Shown in pieces: positions 1 through 53,311 of a stretch of DNA of 64,000 nt. The notes beneath the pieces were generated by a model. It was not told the DNA's origin and searched no databases. It saw only the letters and a program-made list of their open reading frames with translations. This DNA comes from a virus (lineage: Duplodnaviria; Heunggongvirae; Uroviricota; Caudoviricetes): IMG/VR virus record IMGVR_UViG_2579778660_000001; one strand, given 5' to 3'. Each line of letters starts with the position of its first letter. Within the stretch, counting starts at the first letter, position 1. The position numbers and the translations under genes are program-made.

Positions 1-1
1 C

Positions 2-2509
2 GATGGTAGTGCCAATATCGACCTGCCGGGCGTGAATAAAGCAGGTAATCAGAGCACTACCGGTAATGCTGCAACCGCTACAAAACTGCAAACAGCCCGC
101 ACAATCAACGGTGTTAAGTTTGATGGTTCTGCGAACATTTCGATACCAACAATCACGTCCAGAGGGCGTGTTACTGCGCTCACCGATACAACACAAGGTG
201 CTGCTACTGGATTGCAGATGTATGAGGCGTACAACAATAGCTACCCGACCGCGTATGGCAACGTATTGCACATGAAAGGTGCGAGTGCTGCTGGTGAGGG
301 CGAGTTGCTTATTGGCTGGAGTGGTACGAGCGGTGCACATGCGCCGGTTTTCATTCGCTCCCGAAGAGATTACGCTGATGCGGCATGGTCAGCGTGGGCG
401 CAGGTATATACATCAAGGGACTCCATTCCTGGTGTGAATGCCACTGGCAATCAGAATACAACTGGCAATGCAGCAACTGCTACAAAACTACAGACGGCAA
501 GAACTATCGGCGGAGTTAGCTTTGATGGTACTGCGAATATTAATTTACCTGGTGTTAACGTTGCGGGTAATCAGAATACATCCGGTAACGCGGCTACAGC
601 GACCAAGTTACAAACCGCGAGAACTATAAATGGGGTGTCGTTTGACGGTTCTAAAAACATTGAGCTAACTCCAAGGTCTATAGGCACGATCAACTCAACA
701 ACAATGTCTTTTAGTGGTGGTGCTGGATGGTTCAAGCTGGCAACTGTAACCATGCCACAGGCCAGTTCTATGGTTTACATAAGCCTGATTGGTGGTGCTG
801 GATATAATGTTAACTCCCCTATGCAGGCTGGTATATCTGAACTTGTTCTTCGTGCGGGAAATGGGAATCCAAAAGGTCTTACCGGTGCGTTATGGCGACG
901 GACATCGGTTGGATTTACTAATTTTGCATGGGTGAATACATCCGGTGATACCTATGATGTTTATGTTGAAATAGGTAATTACGCCACGGGTGTAAATATC
1001 CAGTGGGATTATACCAGGAACGCCAGCGTAACGATTCATACATCACCATCTTATACAGCGGATAAACCAACAGGCCTGACAGATGGAACTGTATATGTCA
1101 TTTACAGTTCGCACATTAAACCGACCGCCACGGATGTCGGCGCATTCCCAATAACCGGAGGAAATCTCAAAGGCGGTTTAACGGCTACTGGTGAGATCAT
1201 TTCAAAATCGGCGAATGGTCAGCGCATTGCCTACGGAAACTACGGATTCTTTATCCGAAACGATGGTTCACACACATTTTTCATGTTGACCGATTCGGGT
1301 AACAGCCTGGGAACCTATAATAATTTAAGGCCGCTTATTATTAACAACGCCAATGGTACTGTTACGATCGGTAATGGACTCAATGTTACTGGCGGCATCA
1401 ATGGTAGTTTGAACGGTAATGCTGCAACTGCAACAAAACTGCAAACAGCACGCACAATCGGCGGAGTGTCATTCGATGGTAGTGCCAATATCGACCTGCC
1501 GGGCGTGAATAAAGCAGGTAATCAGAGCACTACCGGTAATGCCGCAACCGCAACGAAACTACAGACTGCACGCACAATCGGCGGCGTGTCGTTCGATGGT
1601 AGTGCCAATATCGACCTGCCGGGCGTGAATAAAGCAGGTAATCAGAGCACTACCGGCAATGCTGCAACTGCAACAAAACTGCAAACAGCACGCACAATAG
1701 GCGGAGTGTCATTCGATGGTAGTGCCAATATCGACCTGCCGGGCGTGAATAAAGCAGGTAATCAGAGCACTACCGGTAATGCCGCAACCGCAACGAAACT
1801 ACAGACTGCACGCACTATCAACGGTGTTAAGTTTGATGGTTCTGCAAATATTACTTTAACTGCTGCTAACCTTGGCCTGAGCGATTCAAGCGGATATGTT
1901 GGGCGTTTGGTGAATACCCAGGTTTTCACTTCATCAGGTACGTATACCCCAACCCCAGGAACAAAACGGATCAGGGTCACAATAACGGGCGGCGGTGGCG
2001 GAGGGGGCGGCTGCAAGGCATACTCGAACAGCGAGACGTTTTTCGGTGCTGGCGGTGGGGCCGGTGGGACAATAATTTCAATAATGACCCCGACACAGAA
2101 TAGTTATCCAGTCACTATCGGCGCAGGTGGGGCCGGTGGTGTTAGTGCGACGAACGGCACCAGTGGCGGGAAAAGCGTATTCGCATCGTTAATTGCTCCT
2201 GGTGGCTCAGGCGGCGGAAAGTCAGGAGTCACAAACACAAACGGTGGTAACGGAGGTGTGCCGAGTACTGGCGATATCCGCATCACTGGTGGATATGGAG
2301 GCGACGGTCAGTCCGGAAATATCGGCGTCAGCGGTGAAGGCGGAACATCGTACTGGGGCGGCGGTGGACGTGCAGGCGCTGGCGGTGGTGTTATCGGTAA
2401 AGCATATGGTTCAGGCGGAGGTGGCGCATACGATGCCGGTTATAGCGGAACCAGTATGACGGGCGGGAAAGGCGCTTCAGGGATTTGTATTATCGAGGAG
2501 TTTGCATAA
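2..2509 (+). CDS. tail fibre protein, 5' partial (reading frame is open from the first bases of the window)
   Basis: Reiterated 40-aa motif GNAATATKLQTARTI(G/N)GV(S/K)FDGSANI typical of enterobacterial phage tail fibres; Gly-rich C-terminus; followed by an overlapping assembly-chaperone gene. The track start at 32 is GTG but the frame continues upstream. Confidence 0.85.
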   Translation, partial: DGSANIDLPGVNKAGNQSTTGNAATATKLQTARTINGVKFDGSANISIPTITSRGRVTALTDTTQGAATGLQMYEAYNNSYPTAYGNVLHMKGASAAGEGELLIGWSGTSGAHAPVFIRSRRDYADAAWSAWAQVYTSRDSIPGVNATGNQNTTGNAATATKLQTARTIGGVSFDGTANINLPGVNVAGNQNTSGNAATATKLQTARTINGVSFDGSKNIELTPRSIGTINSTTMSFSGGAGWFKLATVTMPQASSMVYISLIGGAGYNVNSPMQAGISELVLRAGNGNPKGLTGALWRRTSVGFTNFAWVNTSGDTYDVYVEIGNYATGVNIQWDYTRNASVTIHTSPSYTADKPTGLTDGTVYVIYSSHIKPTATDVGAFPITGGNLKGGLTATGEIISKSANGQRIAYGNYGFFIRNDGSHTFFMLTDSGNSLGTYNNLRPLIINNANGTVTIGNGLNVTGGINGSLNGNAATATKLQTARTIGGVSFDGSANIDLPGVNKAGNQSTTGNAATATKLQTARTIGGVSFDGSANIDLPGVNKAGNQSTTGNAATATKLQTARTIGGVSFDGSANIDLPGVNKAGNQSTTGNAATATKLQTARTINGVKFDGSANITLTAANLGLSDSSGYVGRLVNTQVFTSSGTYTPTPGTKRIRVTITGGGGGGGGCKAYSNSETFFGAGGGAGGTIISIMTPTQNSYPVTIGAGGAGGVSATNGTSGGKSVFASLIAPGGSGGGKSGVTNTNGGNGGVPSTGDIRITGGYGGDGQSGNIGVSGEGGTSYWGGGGRAGAGGGVIGKAYGSGGGGAYDAGYSGTSMTGGKGASGICIIEEFA
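1410..1850 (+). repeat. tandem 120-bp in-frame repeats (about 3.7 copies, near-identical) inside the tail fibre gene
   Basis: Direct reading: the unit aacggtaatgctgcaactgcaacaaaactgcaaacagcacgcacaatcggcgg...ccggt recurs at 120-bp period; degenerate copies at 1-120 and 430-660. Confidence 0.85.
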
Positions 2510-2919
2510 TGAATACGTCATATGCAGTTATTGAAAATGGGATGGTTGTGAATGTCATTGTCTGGGATGGCGAGGCTGAATTCACAGTGCCGGATAATCA
2601 GCAGCTCATTAATATTTCTGATATCAGTGAGCAGCCCGGAATCGGCTGGGTGTATTCAGACGGGGGATTTACTGCGCCACCCACTCCGGAACGTTCTCAT
2701 GATGAACTGGTAGCTGACGCTGAACAGAAAAAACAGTCGCTGATTGATACCGCAATGGCTTCCATTAGTCTTATTCAACTGAAATTACAGGCCGGACGGA
2801 ATCTTACGCATGCTGAAACCACCCGTCTTAACGCTGTGTTGGATTATATCGATGCGGTGACCGCAACGGATACCAGCACTGCACCAGATGTCAATTGGCC
2901 AGCGTTCCCGGAGGCGTAG
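2509..2919 (+). CDS. tail fibre assembly / chaperone protein (U-like)
   Basis: ATG overlaps the tail-fibre stop (TAATG) with GGAG 12 nt upstream; C-terminus ...DTSTAPDVNWPAFPEA resembles Tfa-family chaperones; position immediately 3' of the fibre gene. Confidence 0.6.
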   Translation: MNTSYAVIENGMVVNVIVWDGEAEFTVPDNQQLINISDISEQPGIGWVYSDGGFTAPPTPERSHDELVADAEQKKQSLIDTAMASISLIQLKLQAGRNLTHAETTRLNAVLDYIDAVTATDTSTAPDVNWPAFPEA

Positions 2920-3314
2920 TCCATTTAATGAAATATCTGGATCGCTGGAAGCATCGACTGGTTCCAGTGCATCCAGATAAGATGATTACTGTTCATGCTT
3001 CAAGAGCGAGCGCATACTGCATCCAGGCCAATCTAACTTTCATTCGACCAGAGTGTCACCTCTCAAAAGCATTTTTTGACTCTGGTCGTTCAGCCTTTTT
3101 GCCGCTCGCCTTATCCTCAAAAATTAGCTCACATCCTGCGCTTTCAAGGGCATTTCGTTGCAAAGCGGTGTTTTGGTCATTTGTTGATATGCGAATGTAT
3201 CCAATAAGCATATGTCTCCCTTGTATGCTAAGGATACGATTCTAGAAGATGTCCTGTAAGGAAATAACAAACTGACTAAGTTAGTGGCGCATTAGATGTT
3301 ATTTCTGGAGGGGT

Positions 3315-11233: not shown

Positions 11234-11250
11234 AATCAAATTTCTAACAT
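11234..11250 (-). promoter_or_regulatory. operator-like site (ATGTTAGAAATTTG on the minus strand)
   Basis: One of about 12 copies of the ATGTTAGAAAACTAATT-type motif; adjacent 18-bp palindrome AGTGTATTTATATACACT. Confidence 0.5.
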
Positions 11251-11422: not shown

Positions 11423-12385
11423 GTGAATATTTTAAATTCAGTTTCAGTAACTTTCAACACTTCTGAGTATAAAAACAACACTGAATACCACAAAAAAATC
11501 AAAGGTCATCAGTTGAGTTTTTTTGCTCGTCATATCGGTCTTCTTTCCCCTTCACATAGCGCCATTATTGCCGAGTTCGCCAACCTGGCAGGGGCTACCG
11601 ATGAATACATGATCCGTCGCTCATATGCTGATATGTCCGAGATTACAGGACGCAGTATTTCTACTGTACGCCGGGCATTTGCTGAAGCGACGAAGTGCGG
11701 AATGCTTGTTAGGCAACATCAGGTAGCGAATAACAATGCCCAGGTGTGTAACGTATATCGGTTTACGACACAATTTCTCCACTTCATTCATGTAGCAATG
11801 GAGATAGGGGGTAAGCAGGGCATCAAATTTGCCAACGCCACAAAACTGGTTAAGCAGTTGATTTCAAAGGTTCGTTATTTTTTTGAAACTGGGAACCCCC
11901 TGTTCAAATTGAACAAGTCCCCCCATGTTCAAAATGAACAGCCAATAGAAAATAAGAGTCACTCTATAGCAAAAAGAAGAGAAAGATCATGCGCGGTTCA
12001 GCCAAAGGCTTCACCAGCAGATAGTTCTCAAGCGGATAATGGGGTGCTGGATAAAAAACCAGTGATCAGGGAAGAACATACCAACCGCTGCCTGGCGGCG
12101 GCAAAAGCGAGAGCTGCAAAGCGTCGTTCAGACGAGGGGCACGCAAAACGGCAGGCTCTGTATCGTACCGCTGAAAAGTTGGCAAAAAAATTTGCATGGA
12201 TACGTAGTGCCGCTACCGCAGTGAATAAGCCTAAACAATCCAGCGCCCTGGATTTCTCAATGGATTATTCTGGCTCCCAGGGGTGTGCAACCATTGGTGA
12301 AGCCTTTGACCTGATGAAACAGCGTGGCTATCGGTCTGAATTTGACCGGGAGGATTGGTCAATCCCTGCGGGATTCAGGGGATGA
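11423..12385 (+). CDS. helix-turn-helix DNA-binding protein (possible replication or immunity regulator), 320 aa
   Basis: Winged-helix-like segment ITGRSISTVRRAFAEATKCGML; basic C-terminal half; GTG start without a clear RBS, so the true start may be internal. Confidence 0.45.
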   Translation: MNILNSVSVTFNTSEYKNNTEYHKKIKGHQLSFFARHIGLLSPSHSAIIAEFANLAGATDEYMIRRSYADMSEITGRSISTVRRAFAEATKCGMLVRQHQVANNNAQVCNVYRFTTQFLHFIHVAMEIGGKQGIKFANATKLVKQLISKVRYFFETGNPLFKLNKSPHVQNEQPIENKSHSIAKRRERSCAVQPKASPADSSQADNGVLDKKPVIREEHTNRCLAAAKARAAKRRSDEGHAKRQALYRTAEKLAKKFAWIRSAATAVNKPKQSSALDFSMDYSGSQGCATIGEAFDLMKQRGYRSEFDREDWSIPAGFRG

Positions 12386-12524
12386 CCTGTGTGCCTACAA
12401 AACATCCCAATGATCGGCAAATGCTCGCTCGATGATTTGTATTAGAAAATTAATTTGCTGTTTCTAAATCGGAATGTATGATCTGCATCATCGACTGAAG
12501 TCATCCATTGCTGAAATTTTTAGT

Positions 12525-12553
12525 TGATCTTCCATGTTTTCAGGCTTATATTC
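12525..12553 (+). promoter_or_regulatory. candidate sigma70 promoter (TTGATC - 17 bp - TATATT) driving the c4/icd-like region
   Basis: Good -35/-10 hexamers with 17-bp spacing upstream of a 240-bp non-coding structured segment. Confidence 0.4.
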
Positions 12554-12559
12554 ATGCCG

Positions 12560-12790
12560 TCGTAGCAAATTCTGCGACCAGGTTTGACAGCCTGAATGTT
12601 AGTGCGGACAACCGCAGATTTCCGATATTGCGGTATTTTTGTGTCCGTAAACCGCGTTACGCCCGAATTATGGTGGGGCGTGATGGGGAGGCTTCGGCCT
12701 GCTGGTTTCACTAACGCCAGTCTGTCAACCCTGTCACGTCCTGCCACCTGTTTGACAGCGGGTAGCAGGTTGTTAAACCTGTTAGTGAGG
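12560..12790 (+). ncRNA. candidate c4-like antisense regulatory RNA region
   Basis: No credible ORF; direct repeats gtttgacagc at 12572 and 12751 with complementary ctgtcaac at 12721; a UUCG tetraloop hairpin (aggcttcggcct); immediately 5' of an Icd-like ORF, as in the P1 immI arrangement. Confidence 0.35.
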
Positions 12791-12798
12791 CCGTAACT

Positions 12799-13023
12799 AT
12801 GGTTAATGCCAATCCTTGCTCACGTCCAGAATTCATCTGGCGTTTCCACTCCCTGCAAAAACACTGCGATCACTTCGCAATTGCCGCAACCGAAAAAGAA
12901 GCCCGTTCTCTGATCCCTGATCAGCATGGTGTTCTTACTGGTCGTTTCTCTACTTCCCCACAACCAAACACTAATCCCTGGTATCGCAATATTACCAATC
13001 CCAGCATTGCGGAGGCACACTGA
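12799..13023 (+). CDS. Icd-like small protein (cell-division-inhibitor family), 74 aa
   Basis: Motif PEFIWRFHSLQKH...AATEKEARS; a diverged paralogue at 51993-52190; translationally chained (TGATG) to downstream small ORFs. Confidence 0.4.
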   Translation: MVNANPCSRPEFIWRFHSLQKHCDHFAIAATEKEARSLIPDQHGVLTGRFSTSPQPNTNPWYRNITNPSIAEAH

Positions 13024-13142
13024 TGGATATCTGCCTTCATGAATGCTTTTAACCGGATGATGTCGGAGGCTGAGCACCGAGGAAAACGCTGGTATCACCC
13101 CAAAATGGGGCAATTCCAGGTGATCGGTTGGGGAGGTGAGTG

Positions 13143-13340
13143 ATGGACATCATGCAGGCGGTAAAAAAAATCAGGGAAGAACAGGCTGAAGTGTGCCGCC
13201 GTAAAGCATGGAGTGTTGGTGTATGGGCCTGGCCTGATAATTACTCTACTACCGGATGGTTTTGTATTAATGGACTCCAGATCCGGGAAGTTGATTTATC
13301 GACGGCTGATATAGTCGGTAATGATTGGTTCGTGACTTGA
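13143..13340 (+). CDS. DUF2829-like small protein, 65 aa
   Basis: GGAGGTGAG RBS with ATG at 13143; motifs A.VCRRKAW and C-terminal GNDWFV; occupies the slot where an antirepressor would be expected. Confidence 0.4.
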   Translation: MDIMQAVKKIREEQAEVCRRKAWSVGVWAWPDNYSTTGWFCINGLQIREVDLSTADIVGNDWFVT

Positions 13341-13348
13341 AGCGTGAT

Positions 13349-13373
13349 GCCCCGGCCTGGTCGGGGCTTTTTT
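13349..13373 (+). terminator. intrinsic terminator (gccccg-gcctggt-cggggc + TTTTTT)
   Basis: Strong GC hairpin and T run between convergent genes. Confidence 0.75.
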
Positions 13374-13858
13374 CATGCCTCATTAGTTGAGGTTGCTGCG
13401 TCTCCGACTGGTAACAGAGCGGTATTGCGTGGTTCGCCAGCAGGCCAGCGATAGCCAGACACTCTTGATGTTGGGAATGCGCGAATATTAACCGCATCCC
13501 CCTGGTTCCCACCCAGGACAAGCAGATCGCCATTGGCGCGGCGTCCGACAACGAAGCCTACGTGCCCACCGCCTACGCGGGTAAATACAACGATACATCC
13601 GTATGCCGGTGTATCTAATTTCTCGCCCCAATCCAGATAGGATTTTGCCGACTCAAATCTTGTTGAGCGGATGCCTACACGTTCCAGCATTGCACCGACA
13701 AATGCTGCGCACCACGGCGTTTCATCGTCTTTAATTCCGCCGCGCTTGATGTCGCGCCAAAACTGAACGATTTCAGGGTTGTGTTTAGCGCCTTTTATTT
13801 CAGTCAGGCCAATGTGCTTACGTGCTTCAATTAGCCAGCGAGGTTCAATGTTTGCCAT
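13373..13858 (-). CDS. CHAP-domain peptidoglycan hydrolase (Cys/His peptidase), 161 aa
   Basis: Catalytic-type motifs PWCAAFV (Cys) and GGHVGFVV (His); divergent from the DarB-like gene. Confidence 0.55.
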   Translation of the reverse strand: MANIEPRWLIEARKHIGLTEIKGAKHNPEIVQFWRDIKRGGIKDDETPWCAAFVGAMLERVGIRSTRFESAKSYLDWGEKLDTPAYGCIVVFTRVGGGHVGFVVGRRANGDLLVLGGNQGDAVNIRAFPTSRVSGYRWPAGEPRNTALLPVGDAATSTNEA

Positions 13859-22841: not shown

Positions 22842-24050
22842 ATGAGTCAACACACTGATACTTCTAATCTGGAAATTATCTCGACAGCAATTGAAACGCT
22901 GCGCACACAAATCGCTCTTATACAGAAACGGAATCCGGGTGATGACCTGTCAAAGCGACTGCACGAGAGTGTCATTGCCACTACAGATAACCTGGTGGCG
23001 GAAATCAACAAGCTGCTTGATGATGGGGCAGTTGATTACAATAAGCTGGTGGATCAGTTTGAGGAATACCAACAAGCCGTTAATGATGGCTTGAGCCGTT
23101 TTTCGCAAGTCACAGGCGTATCAGCGACAGTTGAAAGCCTGGGTGATGCAGTTAATCAATTTGCCGCGAATATGCGTAATGAGATCGGCAATCTGGAAGC
23201 GCGTCTTGAACAGGCAAATACACTGCGTAAATCTGCCGAAGCCGATTTGAACCGTTACAAAAAAGACTATCCGCCCAGCCTGACAAAGCGGCTGGATGTT
23301 GCGGAGAAGGATAACCGCACGCTGAAAAGAGAGCGCCGGGAACTAAAAGAGCGTTTAACCAGGCTCAATCAGCAATGCATTGATTATCAAGGCGAAGGCG
23401 TCACACTGCGTAAAAAGTTGGCTACAGCGCAGAGCATTATCGAAACATTAAAGCGAGAGTGCTCACAGCTTGGTCACGATCTGAACCGTGCTTGTGGCAT
23501 GGGACAAAGACCAGAGACATTTCCACTTATGTATGATGGGCGGGATGCCATTGCCTACATCCATGAGTATCCGCACGGCCTGGTTGCGGAAACTGGGCAG
23601 CGTGGCGAAGCACTGCTGACGGCTAATTACCATCAACAAATCAGAACCAATCGCCTGTTAACGATGGATGTGATCCCATCGGTGTGGGGAACGCCGCTTT
23701 ACTATCGCCTGCCGGGCTTCGAAAAGGACTGGAATACCGACATAGACGAATGTCTCGCAGATAAAATTATGGCGTACCTGGAGACGGATTTTCCGCGCTT
23801 ATATCGCCGGATTATGGACTCTAAGGATGCGCCAATCGATGAATTAAAAATGCGTCCGGAGACGCTGGAGGCAATCAAGCAGACGGAGTTTGATACTGTA
23901 TTCAGTGTGGCCTGCATTCCAAGCTGTTTCCATGAAAGCATTCCGTTCATGCAAGGAGATCGTCGTCAGGAAATCATTGACGCTTGCCGGGTATGGGCGA
24001 ACGAATGGGATAAGAAGAATGGGGGTGTAGAAGATCTTTACGGGAAATAA
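22842..24050 (+). CDS. hypothetical coiled-coil protein, 402 aa
   Basis: ATG at 22842 (track start is an upstream GTG); long ORF with coiled-coil N-terminal half. Confidence 0.5.
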   Translation: MSQHTDTSNLEIISTAIETLRTQIALIQKRNPGDDLSKRLHESVIATTDNLVAEINKLLDDGAVDYNKLVDQFEEYQQAVNDGLSRFSQVTGVSATVESLGDAVNQFAANMRNEIGNLEARLEQANTLRKSAEADLNRYKKDYPPSLTKRLDVAEKDNRTLKRERRELKERLTRLNQQCIDYQGEGVTLRKKLATAQSIIETLKRECSQLGHDLNRACGMGQRPETFPLMYDGRDAIAYIHEYPHGLVAETGQRGEALLTANYHQQIRTNRLLTMDVIPSVWGTPLYYRLPGFEKDWNTDIDECLADKIMAYLETDFPRLYRRIMDSKDAPIDELKMRPETLEAIKQTEFDTVFSVACIPSCFHESIPFMQGDRRQEIIDACRVWANEWDKKNGGVEDLYGK

Positions 24051-24069
24051 TGTGTTAGAAATCTAAAAT
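24051..24069 (+). promoter_or_regulatory. operator-like site TGTGTTAGAAATCTAAAAT
   Basis: Immediately after the stop at 24050, at the head of a 1.2-kb non-coding region. Confidence 0.45.
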
Positions 24070-24699
24070 TACGATTCGAATGTATTGATTGTGAAGGTAA
24101 CTTAACATAGAATTTTCCTTGCTGGTGGGCGGCACCCACGTTTCGCTTGCTGGGCTTGATAGTCACTTATTGGTTATTGTTCGCCCACCAGCATTTAACA
24201 AATTAAAGCGTTAGAAAAGTATAGTAACGCAAGAGCACGCTTTGGCACCGTGCAGGCCAAAGTTCAGCAGGTTTAGTGCGGAAAGTGGTTTCAGAGAGAG
24301 CACTTTGCGGAGTAAACGACAGTACATGTTGAGCCACGGAAGGTCTTTTTAAGGTGTTCATTGATGATGGTCCGGCAGAGAGTAACGGTACATGCTGCAT
24401 CTAATCATCAATGCACATCTTCAACATTAAGGAGGCATAGGGATTTTTGTGGCGGTTACCTTTTGCCCTGAGTCTCCTTAATGTTGCGGTAATGCACCTA
24501 TGCGGATGTGGCCTTGCATTGTGTCTTGAAAGAATGGGGTAAGGCCGGGGACATCCCCAGGGGGAGGCACCCCCGCTGCAACGAACAGCCACAGACGGCA
24601 GTCGAGTGATGGGAACGTGCAAAGACTTTAAACCTCGTTATGGCTGGCGTGGCAAACGCGACAACCGAGACAGAGCGGTGACGGGCGGAGAGAGTGCCG

Positions 24700-24825
24700 C
24701 ATCAAGAAAGAAGCCGACTTGTGATCCCTTTCAGCGGGCATTTGAAAGTGAATCCAGTTCAGGCAGTCGGCTTCTTTCTTGTGTGAGATGTAGCGTATTT
24801 GCCCATCTTCGGGTGGGCTTTTTTA
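24700..24825 (+). ncRNA. candidate structured small RNA ending in an intrinsic terminator
   Basis: 12-14-bp inverted repeat gaaagaagccgact / agtcggcttctttc followed by hairpin gccca-tcttcg-tgggc and a TTTTTT run at 24801-24825; no ORF with an RBS. Confidence 0.3.
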
Positions 24826-25284
24826 GGGTTTTCGTCATGGTTAGCGACTTTGCGGCGGTTTAGAACCCGACCATTAAAGTAAATGCAAACGATGATCTGA
24901 TGATGGTAGCGGCCTAAGAAGCCTGACGCCACGGGGTATGAGTCGTCCCCCGTCAAAAAATCGACCGCAGAGTGTCCCCGTCTGTGTATTAGGGAACGGG
25001 GAGGCATAACAGGCAAGGGCGCTGGTGTGATTAACCAGATGAATGAGAAGGGTCAGGTCTTTCTGGTCAGCGCCCTTACCTGTTACGTCCCTCCCGCGTA
25101 ACAGCCATTGCTTGATGGTATATGGGAAAGTTTGTTGGTTACGGGTATATCCCGTCATGCTGAAGGCGCTAATCACGCTGGAAGCCAGGGTTATGCATCC
25201 CCTGTTACTGAATTGCAGCCAGGGCGCGGTGCGCCGAAAAGCATACGGAGGTGGAAGCCCTCGCCGGAGACGTACCCGGCAAGT

Positions 25285-25360
25285 GATGGTGTAGCTCAGC
25301 GGTTAGAGCGGTTGACTGTTAATCAACGGGTCGATGGTTCAAATCCATCCACCATCGCCA
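25285..25360 (+). tRNA. tRNA-Asn (anticodon GUU)
   Basis: Cloverleaf folded by hand: acceptor gatggtg/caccatc, D arm gctc/gagc, anticodon loop CUGUUAA, T loop TTCAAAT, encoded CCA. Confidence 0.85.
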
Positions 25361-25362
25361 AT

Positions 25363-25438
25363 GCCGGTTTAGCTCAGTTGGTAGAGCGCCTGCCTTGTAA
25401 GCAGGATGTCAGCGGTTCGAGTCCGTTAACCGGCACCA
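25363..25438 (+). tRNA. tRNA-Thr (anticodon UGU)
   Basis: Acceptor gccggtt/aaccggc, anticodon loop CUUGUAA, T loop TTCGAGT, encoded CCA; 2 nt after tRNA-Asn. Confidence 0.85.
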
Positions 25439-27452: not shown

Positions 27453-27528
27453 TGGCCCTTTAGCTCAGTGGTTAGAGCTGGCGACTCATAATCGCACGGT
27501 CACCGGTTCAAGTCCGGTAGGGGCCACC
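27453..27528 (+). tRNA. tRNA with anticodon CAU, ileX-like (tRNA-Ile2, lysidine type)
   Basis: Sequence ggccctttagctcagtggttagagc...gactcataatcgc...ggttcaagtcc...ggggccacca closely resembles E. coli ileX (recalled); clean cloverleaf. Confidence 0.8.
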
Positions 27529-32349: not shown

Positions 32350-33387
32350 TTACCAGAGCTTTGCGGCGCGCTGCGTTTGGGGGAATGTGTATCCGTAACG
32401 TTCTTCGATTGCTTTGCCGTATTTTTTACGCGCTTCATTCAGTTTGATGCCGGTCAGGTCGTCTCCAGAGGCCATCATTACGTCTAACAATTCCAGATCC
32501 ATTTTATCCAGCCTTGCCATTGCTTCACGCGATGTACGAATCTTACGTTCAATGATATGGCGAATAGCCGGATCGGCATCCTCCAGCATCTTAGCTGATT
32601 TCTGCTTAAGGTTTTCGTTGCGGATATCGATGTTCCTTAAGATATACGACTTCGCAACGTAGCTTGGCTGATGTTTTTCCAGGTCACGAACACGATATAA
32701 GCTAAAGTCGCCGAGAAGGCTGCAAGGCACCGATTCGACGCCAGAATAAATTGTAATGCTACGGCGTTCACCAACATTATTGACAACGGGGATCGTTGTC
32801 TTCGGTAGTTTTGCGAAAACGAATGCGCCATGTGCGCCAACTCTAAAGCGAGAAAGGGCATTGCTGCCTTCGATGTTTGTTGTCAGCACAACATCTGTAT
32901 ATGCCTCTTTACGCGCCCGGTAGACCTCGCCTTCAGGCTCAGCTTCAAAGAAGCGCTGTTCTTCTTCAAGAGCACCTACGATTTGAGAAAAAACCCTATT
33001 TTTCAGGCTTTTCTTTATGATTTTGTCGTATTTTTTGAGCAATTGTTCACGTGTAAATGTACGTGTTGTTGTAGCGCTTTGCACAACAACATGCGTGCTT
33101 TGATTGGTGTCCTCAATGATGAATGGGATCGGAGAATATACAGACTCAACAATGTTAGACGCTTTGCCGTCAGCATTACGGCACAAGTCAACAAAGGCTT
33201 TCCATTCTGCGAGGCACTTTTCAGCTTCTTCTAGTACATTTTGGTCGTGTGTTAGTGCAACGTGGCGGAATTCCTCGCCAGCATAACTGGTATCATGGAA
33301 AACAGAGTTTGCGACCACCAGCTCTTTCCACCGTTCAGCGGTTTGCAGGAACCGTTTGTACTCTTTCTCGATCGACTTCTTACTCAT
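32350..33387 (-). CDS. candidate C1-type immunity repressor by position (c1 slot between pacB and the rox-dre unit), 345 aa
   Basis: Position matches c1 in the P1-family pac-c1-lox arrangement; an operator-like motif lies in its own upstream region; no motif-level identification possible. Confidence 0.4.
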   Translation of the reverse strand: MSKKSIEKEYKRFLQTAERWKELVVANSVFHDTSYAGEEFRHVALTHDQNVLEEAEKCLAEWKAFVDLCRNADGKASNIVESVYSPIPFIIEDTNQSTHVVVQSATTTRTFTREQLLKKYDKIIKKSLKNRVFSQIVGALEEEQRFFEAEPEGEVYRARKEAYTDVVLTTNIEGSNALSRFRVGAHGAFVFAKLPKTTIPVVNNVGERRSITIYSGVESVPCSLLGDFSLYRVRDLEKHQPSYVAKSYILRNIDIRNENLKQKSAKMLEDADPAIRHIIERKIRTSREAMARLDKMDLELLDVMMASGDDLTGIKLNEARKKYGKAIEERYGYTFPQTQRAAKLW

Positions 33388-36209: not shown

Positions 36210-36911
36210 ATGAATAACATGGCAACGAAAGAGCTTTTTAAGTTCCTTCCCAAATACAAAGCTCACAAAAACGTTAGTGCATCGAAAATCAAAAATGTTG
36301 TTATTTTCGGAGTAACTGATGCCCCACTTTGGGGCAGCATCGAACTCGTTGAACCAAAAGGGGCAACAGTTTGTGTTGACGCAATGTTTTTACAAAAACA
36401 CCGACCAAAAACTGGCGGGTATCTGATCGTTTATGAAAACGGTTATCTGTTCTATGCCCCGGAGAAACCATTTGAGGAACGCTATGGCCTGGTTAACGAC
36501 GTCTCCAAAAATGGAACCACGGTCATCATTACGGATGACAACGGCGAGATGATTAATCTTACCGGGAGCGTAACTATTTCTGCTGGTGGCATCACCACCC
36601 AGCAAGAAGAAATCGACCTTGAAGCAGCCGACTTTTCTGACGCGCTGATGTGGCTGAAGGATGGCAAGAAAGTTGCCCGGCGCGGGTGGAACGGCGAAAA
36701 CCAATTCTGCTGGCTGGTTCCAGACAAACACGGCGCTTCAAGACTAACCCCTATAAAACATGCCATCAATGGAGAGCTTGAAATCAATTTCGACTCTCCT
36801 CTTGCTCCTTATGGTACGCATTTCGCTTTGAAAAATGCACAAGGTGTAGTTGTTCCGTGGGTGCCTTCTGTAGGCGACTTACTGGCATGTGACTGGTTTG
36901 TAGTGGAGTGA
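36210..36911 (+). CDS. two-domain protein with C-terminal DUF2829-like domain, 233 aa
   Basis: C-terminal segment FSDALMWLKDGKKVARRGWNGENQFCWLV...PWVPSVGDLLACDWFVVE matches the DUF2829 pattern. Confidence 0.45.
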   Translation: MNNMATKELFKFLPKYKAHKNVSASKIKNVVIFGVTDAPLWGSIELVEPKGATVCVDAMFLQKHRPKTGGYLIVYENGYLFYAPEKPFEERYGLVNDVSKNGTTVIITDDNGEMINLTGSVTISAGGITTQQEEIDLEAADFSDALMWLKDGKKVARRGWNGENQFCWLVPDKHGASRLTPIKHAINGELEINFDSPLAPYGTHFALKNAQGVVVPWVPSVGDLLACDWFVVE

Positions 36912-51399: not shown

Positions 51400-51719
51400 T
51401 TTAAGTTGAATTATAAATTTCTCCGATGTACATTCACTACCGATTGGCACACCGGTCAACTTTTTGAGACAAACTGTATAGTTTTTCGTATTATTGCCGC
51501 CGCCATACCTATGGCGGTGCAATATAGGTGGCTGAAAAGCCCCCGTTGACTCACGGTGTTCCAGCCTTTATTGCGCCGCCACCAGACCGTGGAACAGTCG
51601 ATGGCGGCTCCGAAAGCAAGGAGTCACTACACTATGAACAGCTACTGTCTTTTCCCGTCACTCGTTGTCCGCCACTCACGCGATAATCTGCATTCTTTAC
51701 TCGCGCTGGGGGTGTCAAA

Positions 51720-51887
51720 ATGACCGTTCGCTACCTCAACTTTCAAATCCAGAACATCACTGGCGGTTGCTATGACTGGTTTGTCACTCTCGGAAAAGAA
51801 GTGATCACCGGGAAGCTGGATGAAGTGAAAGCTAAAGCAATGGCCTACGCCTGCAAGCAAGCCCGGAAGAAATCCGCCAAAGCATAA
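51720..51887 (+). CDS. possible small protein, 55 aa, translationally coupled to a 29-aa upstream leader ORF (51634-51722)
   Basis: AAGGAG RBS before the leader ATG; ATGA overlap between leader and 55-aa ORF; not in the track. Confidence 0.3.
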   Translation: MTVRYLNFQIQNITGGCYDWFVTLGKEVITGKLDEVKAKAMAYACKQARKKSAKA

Positions 51888-51992
51888 AATACTGACTTTT
51901 GCGCCCTGGCATTATCGTGGGGTATATTTCTACGGCACCTTAGAAAAACGGGTGCCGGGATTGGAACCTCACGCGGTAGCTCCTTAACTTAG

Positions 51993-52190
51993 TCAAAGGA
52001 GGCTGCCAATATCGCTACTATCCCCACCCCAACTCATTCTGAATTTATCTGGCGTTTCTATTCCTGCCAAAAACACCTGTATATCTGCGTCATGGCTGCA
52101 ACCGAAGCAGAAGCTCGTTCATACCTTCCCCTGGCGGAACGGGGCGTAATTGGTGATAAACAGATACTGGGAAACAGTGGAACTACATGA
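51993..52190 (+). pseudogene. Icd-like paralogue lacking a canonical start codon
   Basis: Translation SEFIWRFYSCQKH...AATEAEARS parallels 12799-13023; AAGGAGG RBS is followed by an ATC codon, and the first in-frame ATG is at 52092. Confidence 0.3.
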
Positions 52191-52274
52191 GGCGGGAGTA
52201 ATTCGTGACCTGATGGAGAATTCCGTTCCCCGCCGCTATCGTGCAGGGAACGGCATCTCCGTGGTTAAAGGTGT

Positions 52275-52667
52275 TTAAAGCTCACCTGCGCGCTGTTTTT
52301 CAAGCACAGATTTAACATTTGGCGCTTTCCCTTTAAAAGAATGGAAAGTGCCACATTTTTCTGTTTTAACCTCGCGCAGAGCTTCGCCGTCGGCGTTCTG
52401 CCATTGATGGGATAATGTCATATCACCGCGAGAAGGAACATCCAGCGAGTACAGCGTGTAAGTTCCCCCCATCTCCGCATACTCCTGGAACACATAGCTC
52501 ATTACGTCAGATTCAGTTTTTCGGTGTGCGTTATCAACCTTATTCCCATTCAGAAATATGGCATCTGGATAGATTTTTATATCAAACCGACCGCACTTAA
52601 CTTGTAAATCTCCGGCGCTCGCGATCAAAGGGAAAGACGCCAGTAAAGCAATAGCCAATCTTTTCAA
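52275..52667 (-). CDS. secreted protein with signal peptide, 130 aa
   Basis: N-terminal MKRLAIALLASFPLIASA signal peptide. Confidence 0.5.
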   Translation of the reverse strand: MKRLAIALLASFPLIASAGDLQVKCGRFDIKIYPDAIFLNGNKVDNAHRKTESDVMSYVFQEYAEMGGTYTLYSLDVPSRGDMTLSHQWQNADGEALREVKTEKCGTFHSFKGKAPNVKSVLEKQRAGEL

Positions 52668-52687
52668 TTCTGCCTCCGCTGCGTAAC

Positions 52688-53311
52688 TTATTGCCCGTAT
52701 TTTTTACACCATTGCTCTGCCATTTGTTTGGCTAAAGGCCCGGCTACTGCACTGTATTCTGCTGTTTTACTTTGCACACATGAAGCAGATGGTTTTTTAT
52801 TTCGCTGCTCGGTTAGTTTGCGCTCATAAGCCATCATGCTATCGAACCCGGCAATATCACTTTGGCGAAGCATTCCCTTTTTAACCAAAAATTGCTGCCC
52901 CTCTGGCACCAACGCAAGCATAAAAAGAGGTTGCAATAACTCACCTAATCCTTGCTGGCGATACACTTCGAATTGCTGCCATCCCTGACTTAATCTGGAA
53001 AGAGTATCTTTGGTTGAATAACCTGTTTTTGTTATAGCTTTGTCCGTCAGATATGCTGTATATGCAAAAACGCAAAAGTCAGTTTTACCAATAAACTGAG
53101 TTCCAACAGGCCGTAATGGAATGCCCTCCCTCTTGCAAAAGTCCATAATGGCCGCTTGTGAATGAACTCCACCAGCGTTATTCATAACCTGCTGCCCTGC
53201 CCTGAATTGTGCAGGTAACGCAGTTGCATTGGCAGTATTAGCAGATACGCATCCCAACATAGCCGCGAGCGCGGCCCCTAAAGCCCTTAACTTCACTACA
53301 CCATCCTTCAT
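52688..53311 (-). CDS. secreted or periplasmic protein with signal peptide, 207 aa
   Basis: Signal-peptide-like N-terminus; several Cys residues. Confidence 0.5.
   Translation of the reverse strand: MKDGVVKLRALGAALAAMLGCVSANTANATALPAQFRAGQQVMNNAGGVHSQAAIMDFCKREGIPLRPVGTQFIGKTDFCVFAYTAYLTDKAITKTGYSTKDTLSRLSQGWQQFEVYRQQGLGELLQPLFMLALVPEGQQFLVKKGMLRQSDIAGFDSMMAYERKLTEQRNKKPSASCVQSKTAEYSAVAGPLAKQMAEQWCKKYGQ

Follow-up and report, generated by a model that had tools for sequence, protein, structure and literature searches.

A c4-type immI operon with a deleted antirepressor gene in a probable D6-like plasmid prophage of Escherichia coli

The immI operons of P1 and D6-like phage-plasmids

The secondary immunity (immI) operon of phage P1 has the order c4-icd-ant1/ant2, and its logic is taken here as summarised in PMC8198154. 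In operons of the P1 type the antirepressor gene is translationally coupled to icd, and P1 Ant1/Ant2 carry the Pfam ANT (KilAC) domain. Among P1-like plasmids immI is a hot-spot of modification (PMC6906374); for example, the natural phage-plasmids pJIE250-3, pSvP1 and pTZ20_1P show gaps, replacements and losses in immI, including ant1/2 (PMC6906374). D6-like plasmids have c4, icd and an antirepressor gene, plus a second c4/icd region (PMC6799933). In D6 itself, immI (NC_050154, 19789-21170) consists of orf19 (icd), orf18 (ant) and orf17, and the order c4-icd-ant-orf17 recurs wherever the locus is present among related PLSDB plasmids (108 of 108) and complete E. coli genomes (95 of 95). The D6-type ant is unrelated to its P1 counterpart: when intact it encodes a 235-aa protein of the Rha/Roi type that matches Phage_pRha/HTH_24 and phrog_63 (PHROG 'anti-repressor Ant'), a putative antirepressor of the Rha/HTH type. 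What is said here of the D6 and P1 genomes follows their GenBank annotation and the papers that cite them.

The locus described here lies in a stretch of 64,000 nucleotides (hereafter the window) and is very likely the immI operon of a phage-D6-like, P1-family E. coli plasmid prophage that has lost its antirepressor gene by deletion. The window is collinear with D6; blastn blocks are mostly 88-98% identical, with three short diverged blocks at 72-77%, and the core genes are full length against D6, ant excepted. Across the immI stretch 12400-13400 the identity to D6 is 96.5%, and nucleotide identity to D6 and pE2863-2 (NZ_AP018804) ranges from 96.5 to 98.9%. D6-like plasmids share the neighbours of the operon, with repL upstream and a convergent TIGR02594/CHAP gene and darB downstream, as well as the terminator and orf17. 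Three differences separate the window from D6: its b sites are of the P1 type (GTTAGTG), as in pE2863-2, whereas D6 and p1_035148 have ACTTACG; the second c4-icd-ant module of D6 is only a remnant; and 587 bp of ant are missing.

P1 immI is about 90% identical at the DNA level over window positions 12539-12954, and the two operons agree in promoter position, a1/b1 leader, a'/b' loops, the placing of b2 on the icd Shine-Dalgarno, and the overlap of the icd stop with the next ATG. Unlike that of P1, the operon in the window is without kilA and stands downstream of repL rather than upstream of kilA-repL; its upstream region, second promoter and operator are not homologous, and it has an extra third gene, orf17. 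pJIE250-3, pSvP1 and pTZ20_1P have P1/P7 backbones and ANT-domain antirepressors, whereas the window has a D6-like backbone and a clean 587-bp deletion inside ant that leaves c4 and icd untouched.

Judged from the sequence, the parts of the operon follow one another as P51b-type promoter, a1/b1 leader, C4 RNA, a2/b2 targets, icd, the two ends of ant, orf17 and terminator:

12438..12454, +: candidate operator for the D6-type C1 repressor, TGTATTAGAAAATTAAT, a copy of a 17-bp motif, 70 bp upstream of the -35 hexamer
12524..12552, +: sigma-70 promoter TTGATC-17-TATATT (consensus scan; alignment to the annotated P1 promoter)
12546..12598, +: leader element c4-a1b1 (Rfam RF03163, 54.4 bits against a gathering score of 46.7)
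12584-12590, +: a1 site TTGACAG (site table)
12598-12605, +: b1 site GTTAGTGC, following a1 (site table)
12666..12751, +: C4 antisense RNA (Rfam RF01695, 68.8 bits against a gathering score of 45, full model covered)
12708-12715, +: C4 loop b' UCACUAAC, identical to P1
12722-12728, +: C4 loop a' CUGUCAA, identical to P1
12752..12790, +: region of the C4 target sites in the icd mRNA; positions agree with the annotated a2 and b2 of P1
12752-12758, +: a2 site TTGACAG, exact 7-nt complementarity to a'
12781-12788, +: b2 site GTTAGTGA, exact 8-nt complementarity to b'; overlaps the icd Shine-Dalgarno GAGG (12787-12790)
12799..13023, +: icd, Icd-like cell-division inhibitor, 74 aa (NCBIfam NF033153, phage_ICD_like, 40.4 bits against a cut-off of 25, E = 2.3e-10)
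13023..13052, +: ant stub of 9 codons, MDICLHECF-stop (alignments to D6 and pE2863-2)
13035..13143, +: the 109 nt left at the 3' end of ant (same alignments as for the stub)
13143..13340, +: orf17 homologue, 65 aa, with its own GGAGG Shine-Dalgarno (13131-13135); 97% identical to D6 orf17
13349..13373, +: intrinsic terminator at the operon end, an 8-bp GC-rich stem (13349-13367) then a T6 run; conserved in D6

Most of the features listed in the first-pass annotation are present where it placed them, beyond chance expectation, and its central reading, a c4/icd antisense-RNA immunity module, is borne out by the Rfam and NCBIfam matches and by loops and targets identical to those of P1. That annotation went further and proposed that the place of ant is held by a different effector, so that the circuit has been re-purposed. 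This proposal is not supported: the slot contains the two ends of a deleted Rha-type ant. Because its antirepressor gene was destroyed by a 587-base deletion, the immI operon in the window is a decayed copy of a known c4 antisense-RNA system and not a new circuit with a new effector.

Transcription signals, C4 RNA and icd

The promoter-like element noticed earlier is confirmed: it matches the annotated P1c4/P51b promoter of P1 base for base and is the positional equivalent of P1c4 (formerly P51b). Upstream of it, the candidate operator belongs to a family of sites. The 17-bp motif TGTGTTAGAAAAYTAAT, with at most three mismatches, occurs at 12 sites in the window against 0.39 expected, and several of these lie upstream of c1, repL, lpa and ref, genes that are C1-controlled in P1; the motif is a putative C1 operator. 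A search with the P1 C1 operator consensus gave 0 matches. Another candidate, 'ATTGCTGAAATTTTTAG' adjoining the -35 hexamer, was discarded as a single copy that is not better than chance. At the other end of the operon, the terminator predicted after the small ORFs is likewise confirmed, in stem and T-run, and sits between orf17 and the convergent TIGR02594/CHAP gene.

Between promoter and icd, a covariance-model search for c4-family RNAs recovers both Rfam families, C4 and c4-a1b1, above their curated thresholds. The counterpart of the mature 77-nt C4 RNA of P1 is 12672-12748, and the fold has a minimum free energy of -42.5 kcal/mol (z = -4.7). The UUCG-tetraloop hairpin reported at first reading turns out to be the inner hairpin of this fold, and the two direct copies of gtttgacagc flanking ctgtcaac are the a1 and a2 sites around the a' loop. 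P1 has exactly the same C4 loops and the same four target sites, and each site shows compensatory three-site covariation across the P1, P7 and D6 types. At least two immI specificities occur on D6-like backbones, a P1-type and a D6-type one, and in both the three-site covariation is perfect. The region of about 240 bp had been described as having c4-type RNA features and no ORF. The first half of this description stands; mechanical ORFs of 66-68 aa are present, but lie across the RNA gene and do not count as genes. The 127-aa members of the 'Icd-like' cluster, considered as fusion alleles, proved to be gene calls extended through the c4 RNA.

The Icd-like ORF, first recognised by a sequence motif, passes the NCBIfam cut-off and has homologues in D6 (orf19, 97% identity) and P1 (Icd, 61%); its protein also matches phrog_1426 (E = 6.6e-39). 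The gene lies directly downstream of the C4 target sites, with b2 covering its ribosome-binding site, and its stop overlaps the ATG of the ant stub. By identity with P1, C4 processing and icd repression can be inferred for the window as well. By analogy with P1 genetics, the C4 RNA would still be transcribed and processed from the operon transcript, and would pair with a2 and b2 and stop icd translation, so that the operon stays shut. Supplied in trans, C4 would also still silence the immI operon of an incoming phage with P1-type specificity.

Remnants of ant and the identity of orf17

What, then, lies behind icd? The window aligns to D6 and pE2863-2, both of which have a 708-bp ant between icd and orf17, on either side of a clean 587-bp gap. 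The deletion removes ant nucleotides 13-599, and 587 is not a multiple of three. What is left at the 5' side is the original ATG and the first 12 nt of ant, which then runs out of frame; the junction falls between 13034 and 13035. At the 3' side, tblastn with D6 Ant1 residues 198-235 finds 95% identity in the remnant. The 34-aa ORF counted among the small ORFs of the operon (13039-13143) corresponds to Ant residues 202-235 and has an internal Met start without a Shine-Dalgarno. It gives only a C-terminal match to phrog_6610 and no Pfam match, and lacks the architecture of about 235 aa with an N-terminal Rha/winged-helix domain and a C-terminal domain. The small ORFs had been thought to be all chained by overlapping stop and start codons. 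Such overlaps do join the icd stop to the ATG of the ant stub and the stop of the 34-aa ORF to the ATG of the 65-aa ORF, but the start of the 34-aa ORF lies outside the chain, at 13039, 15 nt past the icd stop/stub ATG and in another frame.

The imperfect direct repeat TATCTGC / TATCTCC marks the breakpoints, and the gap most likely arose by slipped-strand or microhomology-mediated deletion. The reverse course, insertion of ant into an ancestrally ant-less operon, was rejected because the gene is still represented at its two ends and what is left of it is out of frame. The absence of ant noted at first reading is hence correct in that there is no functional antirepressor gene, and no such gene coupled to icd, whereas both gene ends persist as remnants. 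Queries with P1 Ant1, P1 KilA and the Rha-type Ant in tblastn found no other copy in the 64-kb window, and no conventional ant under c4 control was found elsewhere in it. Another antirepressor gene may lie in the element's approximately 26 kb beyond the window; the corresponding part of D6 has none. The C1 repressor gene is intact in the window. By analogy with P1 genetics, the immunity arm would be kept and the output arm lost, since no antirepressor could be made to inactivate the C1 repressor. If the operon were expressed, its remaining products would be Icd and the orf17 protein.

orf17 matches phrog_7385 over 65 of 65 positions, and in D6 and every intact relative it is a separate third gene downstream of ant. 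Its product is 37% identical to residues 248-312 of D6 Ant2 (E = 9e-16); by this alignment it is a homologue of the C-terminal domain of the second, paralogous antirepressor of D6, which speaks for a connection with Ant and not for a replacement of it. Since it has its own strong Shine-Dalgarno, its translation would no longer need coupling to ant. A word-indexed search for homologues returned 3 proteins and an exhaustive search 5 representatives; one of these, the PKD-repeat protein P0004, was a spurious repeat-amplified match. In some other relatives orf17 is frameshifted or truncated.

The label 'DUF2829-like' given to this ORF fails in Pfam, and what stands of it is a set of weak, converging remote-homology signals. 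The protein in the window has no match to the Pfam Tad2-like family (PF11195) at E <= 10 and does not reach the gathering score. Three of five orf17 relatives give weak matches to that family (best E = 0.012), and hhalign aligns orf17 with Tad2-like end to end (E = 2.3e-4, probability 44%). In a Foldseek search of BFVD the top matches are enriched for Tad2-like proteins (E = 0.007-0.3, from a low-confidence query model with pLDDT 68.6), with probabilities up to 1.0 and TM-scores of about 0.5-0.57. Profile search and Foldseek of the solved structures in the PDB returned noise alone for orf17, with no Tad2 match. orf17 shares with Tad2/DUF2829 an N-terminal helix, R-R-x-x-W and a C-terminal D-x-x-x-x-D-W-x-V; compared with the Tad2-like domain of the DUF2829 protein that the element itself encodes (36210-36911), it lacks about 25-30 residues in length. 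Taken together, the profile and model comparisons suggest that orf17 is possibly a sub-threshold relative of Tad2/DUF2829 with a remote Tad2-like fold. orf17 corresponds, as a protein standing alone, to the domain at the C-terminus of a paralogous antirepressor, and it may be a minimal Tad2-like fold; this offers a testable functional lead.

Spread and meaning of the deletion alleles

The deletion junction is found in 0 of 108 PLSDB plasmids and 0 of 95 complete E. coli genomes, exact junction scans of genome and metagenome contig collections gave no match, and a sample of contigs with the neighbouring CHAP allele has intact ant in 10 of 10. The idea that the deletion is unique to the window was nevertheless overturned. 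An exact-protein look-up showed that 22 contigs carry its orf17 allele, and all nine that were examined have the same junction (at least 9 of the 22). These nine come from independent NCBI isolate, Logan run and ENA metagenome assemblies, show 0-46 SNPs per 5 kb relative to the window and fall into three haplotypes. Because an identical junction stands in at least nine contigs on three haplotypes, this ant deletion (type B) is a genuine E. coli allele, albeit a rare one. In a second allele (type C), on a backbone near-identical to that of type B, the junction reads ATGGA|CTCCAG; ant is cut from almost the same 5' point, and most of orf17 is also absent. Rather than two independent events, B and C may represent consecutive steps of a single lineage.

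Type B junction (window allele): CTGATGGATATCTGCCTTCATG
Type C junction: CACTGATGGACTCCAGATCC

Could the loss of ant be adaptive and not neutral decay, keeping C4, locking in the plasmid-prophage state and preserving P1-type trans-immunity? We consider this unlikely, although several findings are in line with it. The allele persists on three haplotype backgrounds, a second allele cuts ant at almost the same place, the second ant module is also missing in this backbone, and c4, the target sites, icd and c1 are untouched. On the other side, both alleles are rare, as the surveys of plasmids, complete genomes and CHAP-allele contigs show; B and C may reflect one lineage only; and short-repeat deletions are expected as neutral accidents. 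Adaptive loss would mean fewer spontaneous inductions, and none by heteroimmune superinfection.

A broader scheme, still more doubtful, would make the D6-like c4-gated operon an early module with three components: Icd, a Rha-type Ant and a small domain of the Tad2-like kind, either as orf17 or fused in Ant2. The Tad2-like part could act as a ligand-binding domain or sponge, maybe coupling immune-signal sensing or anti-defence to antirepression. Type B and C alleles would then show how immI turned, step by step, from a lysis-lysogeny switch into pure trans-acting RNA immunity (a decoy) in plasmids settling to a plasmid-only life.

Even less probable is a c4 circuit that evolved to work without ant, its antisense RNA now gating the 65-aa DUF2829/Tad2-like protein as an effector, for example an anti-defence sponge on entering a new cell. 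The intact reading frame of orf17 with its GGAGG, its unchanged state in all type-B contigs examined, on three haplotypes, and the convergence of the hhalign, Pfam-relative and BFVD signals would suit such a circuit, and the intact frame is also compatible with retained function. However, D6 has orf17 as its third gene, as do all the intact relatives surveyed, more than 100 of them; nothing was recruited into the ant slot, which is occupied by an ant pseudogene. The homology to the Ant2 C-terminal domain points to an Ant-associated role, type C alleles are without orf17 and some relatives have it broken, and the window protein matches neither the Pfam Tad2-like family nor solved Tad2 structures. 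The value of this result is mostly corrective: what looked like a new c4 circuit, with another effector in place of ant, is a textbook operon that has become pseudogenised, and of the small ORFs behind that impression one is a gene fragment and the other a neighbour catalogued before.

Finally, that the deletion is an assembly or sequencing artefact, a collapse at a short repeat, can be dismissed: the breakpoints do lie in an imperfect direct repeat and the junction is missing from all complete plasmids and genomes, but a 7-bp imperfect repeat cannot collapse an assembly, and nine independently assembled contigs with differing flanking SNPs, all of those examined, have the identical junction. 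With the deletion accepted as real, the window represents a natural, circulating E. coli phage-plasmid lineage that keeps C4 RNA, icd and c1 and has no recognisable antirepressor in the 64 kb seen, and this type-B lineage provides a ready-made test of the part played by the immI antirepressor in induction and stability in the wild.

Layout of the immI operon and loss of ant

The immI region of the window is a known type of operon in pseudogenised form. Reading of positions 12000-13800 with the ORFs listed bore out the layout described in the first-pass annotation, and a covariance-model search for c4-family RNAs, an Rfam scan of the whole window at curated thresholds, placed both a C4 antisense RNA and a c4-a1b1 leader above threshold. 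The C4 RNA folds into a long stem around two hairpins, as expected (-42.5 kcal/mol, z = -4.7), and one of these is the UUCG hairpin noticed earlier. The proposed promoter, TTGATC-17-TATATT, aligns exactly with the annotated P1c4 of P1 (formerly P51b), and the Icd-like ORF passes the NCBIfam model for an Icd-like cell-division inhibitor (E = 2.3e-10), with 61% identity to P1 Icd. The suspected terminator is likewise present as an intrinsic terminator. The neighbours of the operon are exactly those found in D6.

Features of the immI operon and its surroundings
11423-12385, repL, flanking the operon on one side
12524-12552, promoter aligned with P1c4
12546-12598, c4-a1b1 leader (RF03163, 54.4 bits versus 46.7)
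12666-12751, C4 antisense RNA (RF01695, 68.8 bits versus a threshold of 45)
12799-13023, icd (74 aa)
13023 to 13050-13052, ant stub, from the original ATG overlapping the icd stop at 13023 to the new stop (9 codons, MDICLHECF)
13039-13143, 34-aa ORF
13143-13340, orf17 (65 aa)
13349-13373, intrinsic terminator
13373-13858, TIGR02594/CHAP gene, convergent to the operon and followed by darB

In relatives, IS605/TnpB-type insertions adjoin the operon, either between repL and c4 (574-1743 in L007, the plasmid p1_035148) or between darB and the CHAP gene (916-2085 in two assemblies, L033 and L034). Database entries for a 127-aa 'Icd-like' protein result from start codons called further upstream, so that the reading frame runs through the c4 RNA gene.

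Among phage records, blastn matched Escherichia phage D6 at 96.5% identity over the whole query, in two pieces that extend over 1588 bp of D6 versus 1001 bp of the window. In D6, icd (orf19) is followed by a 235-aa 'anti-repressor Ant, similar to HK97 Roi' (orf18) and the 65-aa orf17. In pE2863-2, the closest plasmid at 98.9% identity, these three genes recur, and the annotation of ant is 'Rha family transcriptional regulator'. Intact Ant of the relatives matches Pfam HTH_24 and Phage_pRha and PHROG 63 'anti-repressor Ant', and D6-type Ant has no relationship to Ant1 and KilA of P1, which are ANT-domain proteins. Pairwise alignment and base-level inspection revealed that ant nucleotides 1-12 (ATGGATATCTGC) are joined directly to nucleotides 600-708 in the window. 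At the two ends of the 587 bp lost is an imperfect direct repeat, TATCTGC on the 5' side and TATCTCC on the 3' side (in extended form, TATCTGCaTTCtTGAA versus TATCTcCcTTCaTGAA), which is characteristic of deletion by slippage or through microhomology. The length lost is not divisible by three, so the original ant ATG now opens the 9-codon stub. The 34-aa ORF noticed earlier corresponds to the last 34 residues of Ant, starts at an internal Met without a Shine-Dalgarno sequence, and is by its sequence a gene fragment, whose stop overlapping the next ATG is the former ant-orf17 coupling. The description of an immunity module without an antirepressor was correct, ant being reduced to two end pieces; the proposal of a circuit re-purposed for a new effector is unsupported, as orf17 already follows ant in D6 and pE2863-2.

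C4 pairing specificity and predicted control

The window was aligned with P1, P7, D6 and two D6-like plasmids, and target sites (a1/b1, a2/b2) and C4 loops (a', b') were named according to the P1 annotation. The two 'gtttgacagc' copies reported earlier are a1 and a2, and the complementary 'ctgtcaac' is a'. The icd Shine-Dalgarno GAGG (12787-12790) is overlapped by b2.

C4 loops and target sites in the window
12584-12590, a1, TTGACAG
12598-12605, b1, GTTAGTGC
12708-12715, loop b', UCACUAAC
12722-12728, loop a', CUGUCAA
12752-12758, a2, TTGACAG
12781-12788, b2, GTTAGTGA

One site set is common to the window, pE2863-2 and P1. Unlike the window, D6 and p1_035148 have ACTTACG as b and CGUAAGU as b', whereas P7 has TTAGCAG as a and GATTGTG as b, with matching loops. 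All site changes among P1, P7, D6 and the D6-like plasmids are compensated at all three copies, which is strong comparative evidence that C4-target pairing is functional. Judged by these sites, the window element is in the P1 immI specificity class and its RNA-target system is intact. Specificity is polymorphic on D6-like backbones, P1-type b sites occurring in the window and pE2863-2 (12584-12788 compared with the sequences L001, L003, L004 and L007), and this polymorphism is a lead for specialists; the ACTTACG/CGUAAGU set of D6 and p1_035148 is a third specificity type, distinct from those of P1 and P7.

The operon parts and their complementarity can be read directly from the DNA, and their working can be proposed from the immI logic of P1, summarised in PMC8198154. 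C4 RNA would arise from the operon transcript, pair with a2/b2, mask the icd ribosome-binding site and turn the operon off; in trans, C4 would impose the same shut-off on an infecting phage of matching specificity. Since ant is destroyed, C1 would no longer be inactivated when the operon is derepressed, and the remaining outputs would be Icd and orf17. The loss of ant may be neutral decay or a selected lock-in; P1-like plasmids have been described as often carrying a modified immI (PMC6906374).

A dispersed asymmetric 17-bp motif, TGTGTTAGAAAAYTAAT, counted with up to 3 mismatches, has 12 copies in the window versus 0.39 expected by chance (at 11235, 12438, 21759, 22802, 24051, 28967, 33401, 34814, 45833, 50736, 51384 and 61197). 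Among the genes that have a copy upstream are c1, repL, lpa and ref. The motif differs from the P1 operator consensus, which is absent from the window. It is a good candidate operator for the D6-type C1 repressor, and its copy upstream of c4 (12438-12454) suggests that C1 control of the operon persists, as in P1. The C1 repressor (32350-33387, minus strand, 345 aa) has a full-length match in D6.

Deletion alleles in the population

Matches covering at least 80% of the query numbered 108 in PLSDB and 95 in complete E. coli genomes. The full-length matches listed (the best 60 of each set) span ~1580-1610 bp, so ant is intact in them. A 120-bp query centred on the junction had no contiguous match in PLSDB or complete E. 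coli genomes, and exact junction scans found none in species-representative genomes or JGI metagenomes. The deletion was at first read as unique to the window, a reading overturned by exact-sequence look-up in NCBI isolate assemblies, Logan runs and ENA metagenomes: the window's orf17 allele occurs in 22 contigs, and all nine of those examined have the same junction. In their flanks, these nine contigs show 0, 4-7 or 24-46 SNPs per 5 kb relative to the window. An identical junction on such varied flanks rules out an artefact and indicates that this allele, type B, is real and old enough to occur on three haplotype backgrounds. Its hosts are E. coli according to the sources, and it offers specialists a natural lineage without an antirepressor in the 64 kb seen.

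Exact look-up of the window Icd returned three architectures, namely intact icd-ant-orf17, type B, and a sister allele, type C, in which icd is followed by ATGGA/CTCCAG (about 1725-1830 in the sequences L019, L022 and L024, which have a near-identical plasmid backbone). Compared with the intact operon, type C is shorter by 834 bp, lacks ant and about two-thirds of orf17, and has the microhomology ATGGA common to its breakpoints. Types B and C are nearly identical upstream (0-5 SNPs in 1.7 kb), whereas intact contigs with the same Icd have 41-43 SNPs in the same comparison; the orf17 tail is the ancestral ...DWIVT in type C versus ...DWFVT in type B. Together, the shared haplotype and ancestral tail suggest that type C either arose independently or branched off early from type B. 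The allele of the neighbouring CHAP gene occurs in 11301 indexed blocks of the collection, and 33 contigs were read from the 24 blocks whose contigs are longest. In all 10 contigs shown ant is intact, and deletion alleles are therefore a small minority.

orf17, the second module and the D6 background

The window orf17 is 97% identical to D6 orf17 and matches phrog_7385 along its entire length. Its own GGAGG lies 7 nt 5' of its ATG, so orf17 would be translatable without ant. The family is tiny, with 3 proteins found by word-indexed search and 5 representatives by exhaustive search, 1 of them spurious. A 313-aa relative, whose last 65 residues align end to end with orf17 (37% identity, E = 9e-16), is of the same type as D6 orf82 (Ant2; 24022-24963, minus strand, in the sequence L006), the antirepressor of the second icd-ant module of D6. 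That orf17 is the free-standing form of a domain fused to a paralogous antirepressor argues for an Ant-associated role and suggests that orf17 works with Ant. Compared with window 13143-13340, D6 Ant2 appears as a Rha-type Ant fused to a C-terminal orf17-like domain, making orf17 and Ant2 a split/fused gene pair. In some other elements orf17 is truncated or frameshifted, giving 52-aa and 56-aa variants (among the relatives P0002, P0003, P0052 and P0055).

The earlier label 'DUF2829-like' does not hold at the Pfam level, where the window orf17 has no match even at E <= 10. Three of the five family members match Pfam Tad2-like weakly (best E = 0.012), and hhalign aligned orf17 end to end with relatives of the element's DUF2829 protein (E = 2.3e-4, probability 44%). 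The low-confidence AlphaFold model (pLDDT 68.6) has mostly Tad2-like/DUF2829 proteins as top matches in BFVD (E = 0.007-0.3, TM-scores ~0.5-0.57) and none in PDB. These three weak lines converge, making a remote relationship of orf17 to Tad2-like/DUF2829 plausible but unproven; its link to the C-terminal, possibly Tad2-like, domain of Ant2 is a further lead for specialists. Outside the immI operon, the same element encodes a bona fide family member, a 233-aa protein (36210-36911) with a clear C-terminal Tad2-like/DUF2829 domain; PF11195 was present in 22 of 22 homologues found, and the D6 orthologue matches the model at E = 7.6e-23.

D6-like plasmids have been reported to carry c4, icd and an antirepressor together with a second c4/icd region (PMC6799933). 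In D6, this second module comprises an isrK-like element, a second C4 RNA (76 bits), icd2 and ant2. Its counterpart in the window is a remnant (51507-53311): 184 bp with c4-2 and part of the isrK-like element are missing, the icd2 remnant (~52011-52208) has ATC in place of the D6 ATG and a divergent tail, and ant2 is replaced by two minus-strand ORFs of 130 and 207 aa. The remnant also holds a sub-threshold C4-like RNA (51507-51586, 40.2 bits versus 45) and a 55-aa ORF (51720-51887, phrog_7786). This arrangement is common to p1_035148 and a few other plasmids at 99.7%, several of which have intact ant1. A conventional ant elsewhere had been considered in the first-pass annotation; tblastn with P1 Ant1, P1 KilA and Rha-type Ant found no other antirepressor in the window, and none is annotated in the part of D6 beyond the window's coverage.

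Window and D6 are collinear, in opposite orientations, and most blocks are 88-98% identical. Most D6 proteins tested have full-length matches, including C1, PacA/B, Lpa, DarB, portal, RepL, baseplate proteins and Cre. For about one-third the match is absent or partial; apart from ant, this third consists mostly of accessory or variable genes, plus cin, the S' tail-fibre gene, pmgF and pmgU. No match in the window was found for D6 tciA/tciB, orf23/24, simB-like, orf80, orf99, orf103, orf109 or pdcA. Only the first 49 residues of cin are matched (3065-3211), pmgF and pmgU are matched partially, the tail-fibre region has diverged, and window 1-3300 and scattered accessory regions differ from D6. 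Three tRNA genes (25285-25357, 25363-25435 and 27454-27526) are present, as in D6 and P1-family phages.
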